Below are positions 8,619-16,639 of a stretch of DNA of 64,000 nt, piece after piece. Origin of the DNA: a virus. The notes under the pieces are model-generated. The model had not been told where the DNA came from, did not search any database, and saw only the letters and a program-made list of their open reading frames with translations. The stretch's first letter is position 1. Every line of letters starts with the position of its first letter. Position numbers and translations under genes: made by a program. The stretch spans positions 1 to 64,000 of the IMG/VR virus record IMGVR_UViG_3300017917_001434; one strand, given 5' to 3'.

Positions 8619-8897
8619 ATGAAAAAGGTTCTTTTAGCATTACTGCTGACAATAGCCAGCAACACAGCACTAGCACATGGCCCTGGTTACGGATATGGAT
8701 ATTACCGTACAGGCAACGATTGGATTGTACCGTTGGTTGTTGGTGGAGCAGTTGGATATCTGTTGGCACAACCTCGTGTAGTCTATGTACAGCCTCCACC
8801 ACGTGTTATTACCGTAGAACCAGTATATCAATACATGTGGATTACCGACCCACAGTGTGGTTGTCAAAAACAAGTTTTAATACAAGTTACTAATTAG
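8619..8897 (+). CDS. Secreted or membrane Gly/Pro-rich small protein
   Basis: AAGGAG RBS, signal peptide, G/Y-rich segment, VYVQPPP. Confidence 0.7.
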   Translation: MKKVLLALLLTIASNTALAHGPGYGYGYYRTGNDWIVPLVVGGAVGYLLAQPRVVYVQPPPRVITVEPVYQYMWITDPQCGCQKQVLIQVTN

Positions 8898-10131
8898 TTA
8901 GTACACGGTATATTTGATCATAGGCTATGTTGCTGTCATCATAGCCTATTTCTTTGAATAAGGTACAACAATTATTCAGCAATTCTTTGGTAATAATGTG
9001 CTTAAATGCACCATAAAAGTGATGAAAATTGTACTCTACAATTGGCGCTAGGCGTTCAATTACGCGACTTTTTTCTTCTGCAGATAAGTTACAGTACCAA
9101 CGTAATTGTTCCGCAACAGCGTCTATTCTAGCATCATTATCCACAATCTTGTCATAACTTTCGTCAATAATACCATCAAAAGTTTTAAATCCATAACTGC
9201 GTAAGTACTCTAAATTACCCGGCGCGGCTATGAGCATAAATGGTTGTTTGCTGACTATGGGCTTAAATATTTTCTCTGTTAAGTGTAGTTTATTGTAGTA
9301 AAATACTGTTTCAGTAACTACGTTCCAAAGTGCATCTGCTTCGCGTAAAATGTTGGCACTGATACTGCCTGGTAATTCTGCACGATCAATTACCAGTTTA
9401 GAAATATCAGTTAAGTAACGTTCACTGTGTTGTCGAGCATGCTCGCTTAGTTTAGTATTAGGATCTGCAACTTCGTCACGCCAATCATCGAACACATTAT
9501 CAGTTACATTAAAACTAATTTGCCCTTTAGCCAGTAATTTAAGTTCTGCTAATTTGCTGGCCCAATATATTCTATAACTACGGTCGTGTGTAATGATACG
9601 ATTAAAACTGATAAAGTCGTGATTATAGGGTTTAATTACTGTTTTATCGTAGTTTAGAGCATAGTAACCGCGGTACCAATCCAGCGCAGCAAATCCGTGG
9701 AAAAAATAATATAGTTTCTTGGCGTTATATTTTTCTGCGTAATAATCAAATTGCTTGGAATGTTCGCTGGTAACAATTATTTTTTCTCTGTATATTCTAC
9801 GAGTATCTTCAATGAGATATTCAACTATGTCATCTGGTATTTTTTTAATTTTGTAAGGTGGTGAAAAATTCTTATCAAGTAGTTCTTCTAAGGTATATGA
9901 ATCAGGAAAAGCAAAAACGTCAAGATAGCGGTTGGCGATATTTTCCAGCATTGGCTCTTGATCGTAAAACATTATTTTTCTTATAACATCCGGGCTTGGA
10001 TTAAATACATTTAAATCATCAATGGTTATATCTTTGTTTTCTTGCACTACCCCATTGGGACAAAAAAAGACTTCAAAATCTTTAAACAAAGTTGATGATA
10101 AAAATTCGTAAACGTGATCAATTTGGAGCAT
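8890..10131 (-). CDS. Hypothetical protein, possibly glycosyltransferase-like
   Basis: 413-aa ORF with VVTET..LTEKIFKPI..QPF and LRSYGFKTF..IDESYD; the TEK motif recalls GT10-type folds (inference). Confidence 0.6.
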   Translation of the reverse strand: MLQIDHVYEFLSSTLFKDFEVFFCPNGVVQENKDITIDDLNVFNPSPDVIRKIMFYDQEPMLENIANRYLDVFAFPDSYTLEELLDKNFSPPYKIKKIPDDIVEYLIEDTRRIYREKIIVTSEHSKQFDYYAEKYNAKKLYYFFHGFAALDWYRGYYALNYDKTVIKPYNHDFISFNRIITHDRSYRIYWASKLAELKLLAKGQISFNVTDNVFDDWRDEVADPNTKLSEHARQHSERYLTDISKLVIDRAELPGSISANILREADALWNVVTETVFYYNKLHLTEKIFKPIVSKQPFMLIAAPGNLEYLRSYGFKTFDGIIDESYDKIVDNDARIDAVAEQLRWYCNLSAEEKSRVIERLAPIVEYNFHHFYGAFKHIITKELLNNCCTLFKEIGYDDSNIAYDQIYRVLTN

Positions 10132-10132
10132 T

Positions 10133-14605: not shown

Positions 14606-15087
14606 TAACCCAAGAATCTGTAACTCACAAACTATTGACATGGATGGAAGAGTTTGTTGAACAACCTCATCCAAGTCTTGGCGGTTGGCCCCCTTGTCCA
14701 TATGCACGCCAAGCAAGACTAAGCAATAACATATTAATTAAACAAGGCACAGATCCATACTATGATGGTATGAGCCTACTAACCTATGATTGGTCTAAAG
14801 AAGCAGTGGTATTTTGGTATGAATCTTTTGACCCTAACATATTTGTAACTATGGTTAACAATGCCAATGAAAAATTGTTACCTAAAAACATTGTCATACT
14901 TGAAGACCATCCCAACACAGAAGAAATTACCAGTGGTGTACGTATGAACTTTGGCTACTGTCCTATTATAGTTTGTCAACAGTTAGACAAACTTAACGCA
15001 GCCGGTGAACAATTAAAAGCCAAAGGATACTACGATACCTGGAGCCAGGAAGATTTGGATAAGATTGTAACATGGCGACACAAATGA
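14602..15087 (+). CDS. Hypothetical protein (DUF1415-like CPYA motif)
   Basis: W...FVE...PPCPYAR...EDHP. Confidence 0.55.
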   Translation: MITQESVTHKLLTWMEEFVEQPHPSLGGWPPCPYARQARLSNNILIKQGTDPYYDGMSLLTYDWSKEAVVFWYESFDPNIFVTMVNNANEKLLPKNIVILEDHPNTEEITSGVRMNFGYCPIIVCQQLDKLNAAGEQLKAKGYYDTWSQEDLDKIVTWRHK

Positions 15088-15515
15088 AATTTGCTAGGAT
15101 AAATCTTAGTGAAACCAATTATAGTATTAAAGATAATTGGTCATACGTTCGCGGCATCGATCTATATCCAACTCTCCATCAAATTTATAGACAGTACTGC
15201 AACTATAAAAAGTTTGACAGTGTAATGCCATTATTTGATAATCAATTTCACGATCCATTAACTGACATTATTGGCTATTATTTTAATAGTCAACTTGTGG
15301 CATTTAGTCTTGTTAAAACTTATGATAAAGAAAATGCCGAAGCACTACAGTTTGCCTGGGACTATGTTGACCCTGAACTGCGACTAGGAATCGAAAGTTT
15401 AAAAAACGAATGTGCTGTATACAAAGCTCGAGGTTTTCGTTATTTGTATCTGGGATCAGCTGACGAGTATAAAAGTGAATTAGATGGATACGAAATATTA
15501 GGACCACTACAATGA
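15084..15515 (+). CDS. Aminoacyl-tRNA-protein transferase (ATE1/Bpt C-terminal)-like GNAT protein
   Basis: LVAFS, WDY.DPELRLG..SL..EC...KARGFRYLYLG....YK matches the ATE_C pattern. Confidence 0.65.
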   Translation: MKFARINLSETNYSIKDNWSYVRGIDLYPTLHQIYRQYCNYKKFDSVMPLFDNQFHDPLTDIIGYYFNSQLVAFSLVKTYDKENAEALQFAWDYVDPELRLGIESLKNECAVYKARGFRYLYLGSADEYKSELDGYEILGPLQ

Positions 15516-16639
15516 AATTAAGTGTACATCAACCGTGGGATCCGTTAAAACTCTGTATTGTCGGTCGTACCTACAGTCCTGAATTTTATCAGTTTATTAC
15601 AGATCCGCGTGCTAGATCTGTTATGGAACGTATAGCTAGCGAATGTGAAGAAGACTATCAAAAATTAATTTCTTTGCTTGAGTCGTTTAATGTTGAAGTG
15701 GTACGTCCTGAATTATCCGATGATTACACACAGTACCAAAATCCTAATGGACAACTAGCACCGCCACCAATGTGCCCAAGAGATTACCTGGCAATGATCG
15801 GGGAAGATTTTTATGTCGAAACTAATCAGATTCTGGTTTCTTGGGATTATCTTAAAGGGTGGACCTGGCCAGATAAACCAACGTTGGCCAAAGATATACC
15901 ATTAGAAATACAGCAAGACTGTGCTACGTTGAACGTACACGATCTACACGATCGCAGACAAGAATATCAAACAATTATTGATCGAGTATCTGCATCCAAC
16001 CGTGTAATTTTTAACAAGGATAAAAATCTAAATACCGCAATGATTGCACGTGTAGGAAAAGATCTTTATTTTGGTACCGAGTCTTTAAAAGATAACCTAG
16101 TCGAACTTCAAAAGAAATACCAAGGATACTTCCCTGACTATCGTTGTCACATGGTTAATACCGGAGGACACCTCGATGGAACTTTTGCTGTGGTCGCTCC
16201 AGGCCTAGTAATAAGTTCTCAGGAAATACATAATTTTCATGAATTATTTCCGGACTGGGAAATTGTATATGTTCCTTATAGCCAATTAGGGACGGTACAG
16301 GGATTTAGTCGCATTAAACAGCAAAATGCTGGCAAGTGGTGGGTGCCTGGCGAAGAAGAGAACACAGCATTTACAGAATTTGTCAGCTGCTGGATTAACA
16401 ACTGGGTAGGCTACGTTGAAGAAACATTATTTGATGTAAACTTGTTGGTAATTGATCCTAAAAATGTAGCAGTAAGTGGACACAACGAAACGGTATTTCG
16501 CGCACTAGACCGTTATGGAATCACTCCACATATAGTCAACTTTAGGCATAGATTTTTCTGGGATGGCGGTCTGCACTGTATAACCAGCGACCTGCATCGA
16601 GAAGGTACACTAAACAACTACTTTCCAAAACGAGGTTGA
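15512..16639 (+). CDS. Second amidinotransferase-family protein
   Basis: WDPLK.CIVG, PMCPRD, GHLDG, FWDGGLHCITSD. Confidence 0.85.
   Translation: MKLSVHQPWDPLKLCIVGRTYSPEFYQFITDPRARSVMERIASECEEDYQKLISLLESFNVEVVRPELSDDYTQYQNPNGQLAPPPMCPRDYLAMIGEDFYVETNQILVSWDYLKGWTWPDKPTLAKDIPLEIQQDCATLNVHDLHDRRQEYQTIIDRVSASNRVIFNKDKNLNTAMIARVGKDLYFGTESLKDNLVELQKKYQGYFPDYRCHMVNTGGHLDGTFAVVAPGLVISSQEIHNFHELFPDWEIVYVPYSQLGTVQGFSRIKQQNAGKWWVPGEEENTAFTEFVSCWINNWVGYVEETLFDVNLLVIDPKNVAVSGHNETVFRALDRYGITPHIVNFRHRFFWDGGLHCITSDLHREGTLNNYFPKRG

Follow-up and report, generated by a model that had tools for sequence, protein, structure and literature searches.

Positions 8890-16639 of the window, i.e., the whole analysed stretch of 64,000 nucleotides of the IMG/VR virus record IMGVR_UViG_3300017917_001434, raise the question of whether their nine genes serve one modification pathway. 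This 7.7-kb stretch belongs to a variable genome region of a T4-like aquatic myophage, and a preliminary description proposed for it a single assembly line (sugar acid, hydroxylation, aminoacylation, guanidinylation). The reading that we tentatively prefer, with a confidence somewhat short of even once its mechanism is included, is that the stretch comprises three separable units lying side by side.

The positions previously assigned to the open reading frames all proved correct, and most of the enzyme families that had been roughly named hold; the exceptions are the glycosyltransferase (GT)-like and fibre-like proteins and the intact triad of the second amidinotransferase. Unit 1 (8890-12769) begins with the 413-aa GT-like gene on the minus strand (8890-10131), divergent from ugd (10133-11359), with the start codons 1 nt apart in the head-to-head arrangement already noted. 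ugd and all further genes are on the plus strand. As also claimed before, ugd overlaps the gene of a 172-aa oxygenase (11340-11858), which has an ATGA-type overlap with the gene of amidinotransferase-1 (11855-12769). Unit 2 (12797-14605) is a pair of genes encoding proteins of 243 aa (12797-13528) and 349 aa (13556-14605). Unit 3 (14602-16639) consists of the genes of a 161-aa protein with a CPYA motif (14602-15087), a 143-aa ATE_C-like protein (15084-15515) and amidinotransferase-2 (15512-16639). Between units 2 and 3 there is an ATGA overlap (349-aa gene/CPYA gene), and the two may be co-transcribed. A plus-strand sigma-70-type promoter at 16636-16664 (perfect TTGACA-17-TATAAT with TG) opens a separate unit of uvdE (16671-17714, plus strand; Pfam UvdE at 5e-36), with a terminator downstream at 17946-17977, and delimits the cluster at its 3' end.

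Synteny was compared among about 20 close relatives, retrieved by means of the 243-aa gene. Units 1 and 2 are almost always present there, and unit 3 was found only in the window, in L027, in L030 (= L003) and, in part, in L046; in most of the relatives uvdE directly follows the 349-aa gene, without the CPYA, ATE_C-like and amidinotransferase-2 genes. In L032 the 243/349 pair is kept without ugd, the oxygenase and amidinotransferase-1. A lack of co-occurrence in relatives had been named beforehand as evidence against a common pathway, and it was observed in part: the whole arrangement is retained in L003 and L027 (42-81% amino acid identity) and the oxygenase-amidinotransferase-1 pair occurs also in phage S-SCSM2R, but the full set is not maintained, as unit 3 is absent from most relatives.

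Unit 3 represents one copy of a cassette that is specific to phages and widespread, occurring in hundreds of uncultured ones. Relatives of the CPYA protein are encoded by at least 582 IMG/VR stretches, and a profile search yielded 1,025 representatives at 50% identity. In a survey of 80 loci from diverse viruses, each with a CPYA homologue (33-48% identity), the ATE_C-like gene adjoins the CPYA gene in 76 and DUF6614 lies near it in 63, while gene order and strand differ among the loci. An amidinotransferase of the amidinotransferase-2 type belongs to the cassette in 23 loci; since it is missing from the other 57, the core does not depend on arginine chemistry. The copy in the window lacks DUF6614, which most cassettes carry. 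As part of the three-unit reading, and as tentatively as the whole, we propose that the core pairs a small thiolate-heme oxygenase-like protein with a stand-alone ATE_C-type transferase, to which an AGAT-like pentein has been added here.

Neither the synteny of the relatives nor the 80 cassette loci support the single assembly line, and that all nine genes together decorate a fibre-like protein, a host glycan or DNA appears most improbable. The genes are co-oriented with ATGA-type overlaps, the full arrangement persists in L003 and L027, and at the distant locus L103 the cassette lies within about 1.2 kb of 243/349 homologues; given L103 and the ATGA overlap, units 2 and 3 may indeed be linked. 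Tight gene packing, however, is usual in T4-like genomes, most close relatives possess ugd through the 349-aa gene without unit 3, L032 has the 243/349 pair alone, and near the surveyed cassettes ugd was found in 3 and the 349-aa gene in 2 of the 80 loci. Moreover, there is no aminotransferase that could supply a sugar amine. Nor, as had been stated before, is a base-activating enzyme seen, so that DNA modification is not favoured.

Unit 1, with its Ugd, oxygenase/StrB1-like amidinotransferase pair and GT-like neighbour, may serve the tailoring of a nucleotide sugar or glycan (the same tentative confidence applies), and this kind of gene set is already known from hypervariable islands of marine myophages. 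The nucleotide-sugar 6-dehydrogenase of the Ugd family was recognised correctly in the preliminary description: its Pfam N-terminal (UDPG_MGDP_dh_N 5e-17) and central (5e-14) domains are both above cut-off and its C-terminal domain matches weakly; it matches phrog_9148 at 1e-96 and TIGR03026 with 142.7 bits, below the cut-off of 189.8. The Ugd of Synechococcus phage Bellamy is 57% identical to it and the one from Pelagibacter phage HTVC008M 49%, and GxGxxG (residues 10-15) and the catalytic-type Cys252 are present. For the cupin-type, probably Fe(II)/2-oxoglutarate-dependent oxygenase, the HxD...H...R pattern is invariant (H93, D95, H153, R163), but the match to Pfam Asp_Arg_Hydrox (2.9e-4) stays sub-threshold, with 21.2 bits against a 22.6-bit cut-off. 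Its relative in the Synechococcus cyanophage S-SCSM2R, ORF308 (31% identity, E 2e-25; hhalign 99.5%), is located directly 5' of an amidinotransferase-1 homologue, i.e., in the same pairing, inside a glycosyltransferase-rich island. Amidinotransferase-1 itself was identified properly, as it matches StrB1 (PDB 1bwd, inosamine-phosphate amidinotransferase) at 2e-52 and HsvA and AGAT near 1e-25, and its triad is complete (D146/H192/C296; D98 and D194 are also there). The GT-like label, in turn, found no Pfam, NCBIfam, PHROG or PDB-profile match in a profile check of the gene, and the only lead is a weak one (Atlas score 0.80 to GT10). The protein belongs to a virus-only family according to its Atlas clusters, has invariant R187, E274 and T285-E286-K287, and is encoded next to ugd in about 18 relatives; this divergent 413-aa protein may be a glycosyltransferase. 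The product of unit 1 would be an altered host-surface or virion glycan, possibly bearing a guanidino group.

The conserved pairing in unit 1 bears also on the idea that the genes are independent auxiliary metabolic genes with no shared product, e.g., amidinotransferases channelling nitrogen from arginine into ornithine and guanidino compounds, with Ugd feeding host sugar pools. We regard this as highly unlikely. Variable islands of marine myophages do gather unrelated genes of this type (PMC7029224), and the three units are separable; however, distant phages share the oxygenase-amidinotransferase-1 pairing and the CPYA-ATE adjacency survives changes of order and strand, which together argue for at least pairwise functional coupling.

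Unit 2 is probably a late transcription unit. A (C/A)TAAATA motif, late-promoter-like in its sequence, is placed ~20-35 nt upstream of the ATG of the 243-aa gene in all relatives examined, and also 25 nt upstream of a tail-fibre-like gene starting at 38265. The 243-aa protein has no Pfam match, and its AF2 model (pLDDT 64, pTM 0.64) gave 92 Foldseek matches at E<=1e-3 (best E 6e-7, TM about 0.4), those listed being SAM methyltransferases, e.g., TylM1, DesVI, CalS10, and CypM; the model thus predicts a class I methyltransferase-like fold, with a degenerate SAM motif. In every relative this gene is followed by the 349-aa gene, whose description as fibre-like was backed by neither HMMs nor tblastn: this virus-only protein matched nothing in Pfam, PHROG or NCBIfam, tblastn in 50,697 phage records gave zero matches, and its relatives form virus-only clusters. 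In the Atlas, 100% of its neighbours are from viruses and PTL_trimer is a weak lead; its C-terminus is conserved (...IGWVC.G..W..FG). It is possibly a late structural or fibre-like candidate.

Within unit 3, the CPYA protein is probably a heme enzyme; it is short and related to the thiolate-heme P422 (DUF6875) and YqcI-YcgG enzymes. Cys ligands are known from the literature on both P422 and AglA. Cys32, the putative heme ligand of the CPYA protein, is the sole invariant residue among 133 CPYA representatives and lands on the VCP Cys in hhalign against genuine DUF6875 proteins (94.4% probability, E 9.4e-8). DUF6875 is matched below threshold by 55 of the 133 members, the score of the CPYA protein (19.4 bits) is under the Pfam gathering cut-off (24.5), and sequence similarity to P422 does not extend beyond about the first 56 columns. 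The top structural match of its AF2 model (pLDDT 90.4) is AglA (136 residues aligned; runner-up Z 4.1), with a Z of 6.6 that is within the range where chance arrangements occur.

The ATE_C-like protein was named rightly, on weak but recurrent matches (Pfam ATE_C 1.4e-3; NCBIfam arginyltransferase 6e-6), for which all HMM scores are below the curated cut-offs; PF04377 is precomputed on many of its more than 1,600 homologues, and hhalign places residues 23-138 on 112-238 of bacterial Bpt (E 0.002). It is a stand-alone GNAT domain equivalent to the C-terminal half of Bpt/ATE1, and the tRNA dependence of this ATE_C-only protein is putative. To our knowledge, every characterised ATE_C-family member (ATE1, Bpt) works on protein N-termini, which favours a different role of the cassette: host or phage proteins would receive a destabilising residue from the ATE_C-like enzyme, with the heme protein or the pentein preparing or sensing the substrate, and the tagged proteins would enter phage ClpP/ClpA proteolysis. 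The same contig encodes ClpP (21494-22114, 1e-65), a ClpA-like AAA+ protein and a tmRNA with an ...ALAA tag, and in a bacterial genome (L160) aat lies next to bpt and a clpA-like ORF. We nevertheless consider N-terminal tagging unlikely: ClpS was looked for on the contig and not found, many relatives have ClpP but not the cassette, and the frequent company of an amidinotransferase and DUF6614 is without counterpart in known N-degron pathways. Furthermore, the ATE_C-like protein has no ATE_N half, and the CPYA protein, which bears no similarity to ATE_N, is not this missing part.

As regards amidinotransferase-2, the family assignment stands (PDB matches: AGAT 6e-17, SxtG 7e-14, StrB1 6e-12), but the supposedly intact Cys/His/Asp triad does not, as the position of AGAT Asp254 is occupied by Asn174 and is Asn or Ser throughout the phage clade of this AGAT-like pentein; D91, H220, D222, and C356 have been retained. 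For both amidinotransferases, the best solved relatives include the phevamine enzyme HsvA (PDB 5wpi), likewise an amidinotransferase, and the hsv logic combines amidino transfer with amino-acid ligation. The cassette could make a small aminoacylated guanidino-amine (e.g., an amidino-polyamine conjugate like phevamine A) acting as an effector or counter-defence metabolite in infection, for which the anti-Druantia activity of a DUF6614-like ORF in one preprint is a lead only. Such a product seems quite unlikely, as the amidinotransferase is optional, the window is without an ATP-grasp ligase, PADLOC returned no hits, and the hsv scheme leaves the heme protein unexplained.

In the preferred three-unit reading, the ATE_C-like enzyme of the cassette would move an amino acid, most likely arginine, from a charged host tRNA to an amine acceptor. 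A host ferredoxin-type reductase would feed the heme protein, which would then oxidise this product, with N-hydroxylation of the guanidino group as the model reaction, and the pentein would bind or transfer the (hydroxy)amidino group.

Among known systems, unit 1 resembles the LPS/O-antigen-type host-recognition clusters of pelagimyophages and cyanomyophages, in which Ugd is likewise accompanied by putative glycosyltransferases in a variable region of T4-like aquatic myophages; pelagimyophage clusters carry Ugd and glycosyltransferases (PMC7029224). Ugd homologues are found in Bellamy, HTVC008M, and S-SCSM2R, but in Bellamy and S-SCSM2R they are flanked by NadE-like amidotransferases and members of recognisable GT families, whereas here Ugd is joined by the 2OG oxygenase and StrB1-like amidinotransferase pair. 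Compared with the pentein-fold enzymes StrB1, AGAT, and HsvA, amidinotransferase-1 is related to StrB1 over its full length and has the Cys-His-Asp triad, while amidinotransferase-2 shares Cys and His along with the two Asp residues that bind the guanidino group, with Asn/Ser for the triad Asp in it and its phage clade; the stretch is without cyclitol or cylindrospermopsin-type partner genes. The 143-aa protein is colinear with the C-terminal GNAT half of Bpt/ATE1 (Pfam ATE_N + ATE_C; about 250 aa or more), its FAWDY..P..RLG..SL..E aligning with YTYYDP...SLG and its YLYLG...YK...GFE with YLGYWI...YK...PLE of Bpt, but it is devoid of the entire ATE_N half, including the Cys motif and GFRRSG. 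With cytochrome P422 (former DUF6875; bioRxiv 10.64898/2025.12.11.692455), the CPYA protein has in common the N-terminal heme-binding region (GGWPPCPYA against RxGxVCP) and a similar size (161 aa; the P422 profile has 178 positions); at the sequence level it showed none of the P422 substrate-binding motifs, and known P422 enzymes use tryptophan, not guanidines, as the substrate (bioRxiv 10.64898/2025.12.11.692455).

The best analogue of the cassette appears to be the argolaphos pair AglC and AglA of Streptomyces monomycini, whose cluster is known for GNAT-type aminoacyl-tRNA ligases (PMC8976061). AglC is an Arg-tRNA-dependent transferase and AglA a heme guanidine N-hydroxylase, and AMPn-Arg is made with ArgRS, tRNA and AglC before being hydroxylated by AglA (PMC12866846). 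The two systems differ in setting (a phage versus an actinomycete gene cluster), and the cassette is without phosphonate genes and has the extra AGAT-like pentein; the 161-aa protein is about 80 residues shorter than AglA and by sequence nearer to DUF6875/P422 than to YqcI/YcgG, and AglC and the 143-aa protein are likened by role only. By this analogy, the phage cassette would follow the same logic, pairing an aminoacyl-tRNA-dependent transferase with a small sandwich-fold thiolate-heme enzyme, which in the case of AglA N-hydroxylates the guanidine of the transferred arginine.

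All open reading frames named in the preliminary description of the 8890-16639 stretch were found, and the GT-like and ugd genes are located head to head, as stated there, with start codons 1 nt apart. The description as a whole was partly confirmed; its central proposal, a single pathway comprising all the genes, was not supported by the synteny check, in which the genes fell into units that are separable among relatives. A search with the gene of a 243-aa protein (12797-13528) gave 21 related contigs (64-77% identity), nearly all of which keep the GT-like gene (minus strand), ugd, the oxygenase gene, the gene of amidinotransferase-1 and the pair encoding the 243-aa and 349-aa proteins. 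The genes of the CPYA protein, the ATE-like protein and amidinotransferase-2 were found only in L027, in L030 (the same contig as L003) and partly in L046, and in the other contigs uvdE follows straight after the 349-aa gene. Furthermore, contig L032 retains the 243/349 pair but lacks ugd, the oxygenase and amidinotransferase-1. Describing the region as three modules rather than one pathway keeps a misleading annotation from being made.

The first module (8890-12769) opens with the GT-like gene (8890-10131, minus strand), for which glycosyltransferase is a tentative assignment: no Pfam, NCBIfam, PHROG or PDB-profile match was obtained, 13 relatives searched against Pfam gave nothing, and one weak lead (Atlas score 0.80) pointed to GT10. 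The Ugd assignment (10133-11359) is secure. UDP-glucose/GDP-mannose dehydrogenases are recognized by a GxGxxG NAD motif and a catalytic cysteine in a G.C..KD-type motif. The encoded protein has both the NAD-binding and central domains (PF03721, 5e-17, and PF00984, 5e-14, each over its cut-off), GIGKLG at residues 10-15 and the catalytic-type Cys252 within GPCHPRD, and it matches phrog_9148 (1e-96); the scores for the C-terminal UDP-binding domain PF03720 (23.3 bits against a 30-bit cut-off) and TIGR03026 (142.7 against 189.8 bits) are below threshold.

The predicted oxygenase (11340-11858, with the ATG at 11340 as the best start) has the HxD...H triad claimed for it, since H93, D95 and H153, together with the 2OG-binding R163, are invariant across ten sequences, but its match to Asp_Arg_Hydrox (2.9e-4) is slightly under the cut-off, and the PDB profile search gave nothing better than E 0.4. 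Amidinotransferase-1 (11855-12769) is a full-length homolog of StrB1 (1bwd, 2e-52) with the expected Cys-His-Asp triad (C296, H192, D146) and two guanidino-binding aspartates (D98 and D194). In Synechococcus phage S-SCSM2R, homologs of this pair are likewise neighbors that overlap; there, ORF308 (31% identity to the oxygenase, E 2e-25) and ORF309 (36% identity to amidinotransferase-1) are localized amid glycosyltransferase genes. In the proteome of CsCl-purified S-SCSM2R virions, ORF266, a homolog of amidinotransferase-2, and ORF269, a 2OG oxygenase, were detected (PMC12801897), a hint that enzymes of this kind are either plentiful late in infection or packaged. Ugd and glycosyltransferases have also been described in the host-recognition clusters of pelagimyophages, with a proposed role in altering the host surface (PMC7029224). 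The oxygenase-amidinotransferase-1 pair constitutes a second testable unit, possibly acting in guanidino-glycan modification; its interest is secondary to that of the cassette of the third module.

Upstream of this module, a near-consensus promoter at 8562-8590 (within window positions 8562-8897) overlaps the motif TATAAATA and is followed by an ORF whose 92-aa product begins like a signal peptide and contains the stretch GYGYGYY. This ORF and the GT-like gene, encoded on the opposite strand, overlap at their 3' ends, and read-through would run antisense to the latter.

The second module (12797-14605) comprises the 243-aa and 349-aa genes. In class I SAM-dependent MTases, the SAM motif is GxGxG, and strand 2 is followed by a conserved acidic residue. 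The model of the 243-aa protein suggests a class I methyltransferase-like fold with moderate confidence (pLDDT 64), and its best Foldseek matches are all MTases (E down to 6e-7), yet with TM scores of about 0.4. The SAM motifs are unconserved: the motif I position is occupied by VGFSPL, lacking GxGxG, and the residue after strand 2 is D, N, E, G, A or Q among relatives, so an acidic residue is not conserved. DNA modification was dropped as an explanation, the search of the window having revealed no supporting gene. The 349-aa protein (13556-14605), previously called fibre-like, could not be assigned to any family: it has no PHROG or Pfam matches, its 10 relatives compared with PHROGs gave nothing consistent, and tblastn against phages found no match. 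Its Atlas neighbors are solely viral, and the Atlas model is poor (pTM 0.31), with a weak lead to PTL_trimer. In every relative examined, a (C/A)TAAATA heptamer is present about 20-35 nt upstream of the ATG of the 243-aa gene, even in L032 with its different upstream gene, and it recurs 25 nt upstream of a tail-fibre-like gene starting at 38265. These observations are consistent with a late promoter and with a late role, possibly a structural one, for the 243/349 pair.

On the other side of the cassette, a sigma-70-type promoter with a perfect TTGACA-17-TATAAT arrangement and an extended TG (16636-16664) precedes uvdE (16671-17714), which is followed by a 79-aa ORF and a strong terminator (17946-17977). 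This promoter and terminator set uvdE apart, and together with the 79-aa ORF it forms a clean two-gene unit.

The lasting interest of the region is the third module (14602-16639), a phage-specific cassette of a putative heme protein and a putative ATE_C-like transferase. The 161-aa CPYA protein (14602-15087) belongs to a diverse family: among 133 representatives (22-57% identity), Cys32 is the sole invariant residue. Sub-threshold matches to DUF6875 were obtained for 55 of them and to DUF1415 for 23, with any other family matched by at most two. The window's protein itself scored 19.4 bits against Pfam DUF6875 (gathering cut-off 24.5), over profile positions 3-41 only. Profile-profile alignment (hhalign) with three genuine DUF6875 proteins taken from cyanobacterial genomes gave 94.4% probability (E 9.4e-8) over residues 10-64, with Cys32 aligned with the cysteine of their GAVCPY; the Cys-Pro motif with the putative heme ligand lies near the N-terminus. 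Sequence and profile searches of the PDB with the CPYA family found no meaningful match.

The P422/YqcI-YcgG sandwich fold consists of a four-stranded sheet with flanking helices. The AF2 model of the CPYA protein (pLDDT 90.4) had a single structural match with Z of at least 5 (the next being 4.1), namely AglA (9ub3_A; Z 6.6, rmsd 3.9 Å, 136 residues aligned), bearing in mind that a Z below 8 can reflect a common arrangement; Foldseek TM scores were 0.50-0.55. AglA is a thiolate-heme YqcI/YcgG enzyme with the ligand Cys44, which N-hydroxylates a guanidine, and in a preprint DUF6875 was renamed cytochrome P422, a thiolate-heme family with its ligand cysteine in RxGxVCP (bioRxiv 10.64898/2025.12.11.692455). 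Our reading is that the CPYA protein belongs to the P422/YqcI-YcgG heme-enzyme superfamily as a divergent short form, with putative heme binding.

The downstream gene (15084-15515) encodes a 143-aa protein, whose description as ATE_C-like stands insofar as it is colinear with the C-terminal half of one bacterial Bpt (hhalign, Bpt residues 112-238, E 0.002) and weakly matches PF04377 (1.4e-3, 19.6 bits, cut-off 25) and the NCBIfam arginyltransferase NF002344 (6e-6, far under its cut-off). These matches are mutually consistent, every one of them below its curated threshold, and precomputed PF04377 assignments exist for many of the homologs, which number more than 1,600; sequence and profile searches of the PDB gave no meaningful match. 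The ATE_N half of a complete transferase, with its Cys motif, is missing from the protein. The possibility that the CPYA protein supplies this half as part of a split Bpt was considered and rejected, as hhalign detected no similarity to ATE_N and no ATE1 chain appeared among its structural matches.

The third protein, amidinotransferase-2 (15512-16639), is a relative of AGAT (6e-17), SxtG (7e-14) and StrB1 (6e-12). It retains Cys356, His220, Asp91 and Asp222, but the triad aspartate is replaced: Asn174 occupies the position of AGAT Asp254, so the earlier claim of an intact triad is wrong. Of the 24 aligned phage-clade members having the stretch, 23 have Asn or Ser here. The presence of HsvA among the PDB matches of both amidinotransferases is consistent with a cassette that makes a phevamine-like aminoacylated amidino-amine, a product that we regard as rather unlikely.

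Amidinotransferase-2-type penteins also occur elsewhere. In the cyanophage-like loci L010-L012, L015 and L018, one or two of them in tandem are followed by DUF6614, with CPYA and ATE-like genes not nearby; the triad-Asp position is Ser in the penteins of L010-L012 and L015, and Asp in L018. Moreover, a 572-aa JGI metagenome protein (P0334) is a natural fusion of a CPYA domain with such a pentein. Its use as Rosetta-stone evidence was dropped, as it is represented by a single sequence on a 6-kb contig and may be a frameshift artefact, and a search for longer forms found none.

The distribution of the cassette was analyzed starting from the CPYA family, relatives of which are encoded on at least 582 IMG/VR stretches. 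Of 80 viral loci (33-48% identity), 76 have the ATE-like gene next to the CPYA gene, 63 have DUF6614, 23 an amidinotransferase, three ugd and two the 349-aa gene. The ATE-like gene is at times on the opposite strand and the position of the amidinotransferase varies; the tight coupling of CPYA and ATE-like genes therefore outlasts rearrangement. DUF6614 (e.g., L003, 7358-7690; L004, 12564-12896), usually last in the cassette and absent from the window's contig, is a highly conserved protein of 110 aa with invariant His87 and His100, for which PDB sequence and profile searches found no meaningful match; in one preprint, anti-Druantia type I activity is listed for a phage ORF resembling DUF6614. 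In a distant 204-kb viral contig (L103, 6001-11811), CPYA, DUF6614 and amidinotransferase genes are located just upstream of 243/349 homologs (36% and 31% identity, respectively), which is a second, rearranged co-location of the second and third modules.

In cellular genomes the cassette is almost absent: among 185,579 species-representative genomes, 32 loci with the motif used were found, and two of them (L128 and L130), both metagenome-bin contigs, carry the pair. Filamentous cyanobacteria (Oscillatoria, Microcoleus and others; L129, L133-L151) have stand-alone CPYA-family genes (24-40% identity), and the Microcoleus protein has a full-length DUF1415 match (5e-4). Bacterial context was dropped as a functional clue, as these homologs stand alone amid unrelated genes (ndhM, TerD-pentapeptide, PP2C and panB). 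The cassette was unmentioned in the literature searched.

The viral contig is linear and 89.6 kb long, the window being its first 64 kb, with a CheckV completeness estimate of 22%; neither a terminal repeat nor a tRNA gene is present. A 672-aa protein (2584-4602) shows 36-38% identity to proteins of Methylophilales phage Melnitz and Pelagibacter phage HTVC008M, and the virus is therefore considered an aquatic T4-like myophage. The same protein matches phrog_35576 (5e-203), and its counterparts in both phages are annotated as adenylate/guanylate cyclase. The sole sequencing run containing the stretch is a DNA run and, by its label, a pond metagenome; no RNA run containing it was listed. A megablast search of phage records with the complete cluster was negative, and PADLOC gave no hits.

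Besides GroEL, DNA ligase, tmRNA, tail-fibre-like and virion proteins, the contig encodes ClpP (21494-22114; PF00574, 1e-65), flanked by radical SAM genes (20298-21506 and 22092-23378) and kept in relatives with about 81% identity. Together with a ClpA-like gene, it would be compatible with a cassette modifying proteins in an N-degron-type manner, with the products passed to the phage ClpP/ClpA; ClpS was sought on the contig and not found, and we consider such a role unlikely.

Our own proposal, arginine chemistry specific to phages, is a tentative one, possible rather than probable. In hundreds of uncultured phages, a self-contained pair of enzymes, one a miniature thiolate-heme oxygenase and the other an aminoacyl-tRNA transferase of half size, may use host charged tRNA and ferredoxin to place an N-oxygenated arginyl (hydroxyguanidine-type) group on a metabolite or protein, which the Asn/Ser penteins would process, leading to no product described so far. 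The cassette would couple aminoacyl transfer from charged tRNA to heme-dependent oxidation, and the pentein would act on a guanidino group. If this chemistry is true, phages draw charged tRNA into tailoring; confirmation of the function would open up small heme biocatalysts as a new class and give a role to a very common unknown of aquatic viromes. The cassette would join two kinds of enzymes understood only lately, the P422/YqcI-type thiolate-heme enzymes and the tRNA-dependent GNAT ligases. The closest worked example of its logic is argolaphos, in the biosynthesis of which ArgRS, tRNA and AglC make AMPn-Arg, and AglA then hydroxylates its guanidine (PMC12866846).
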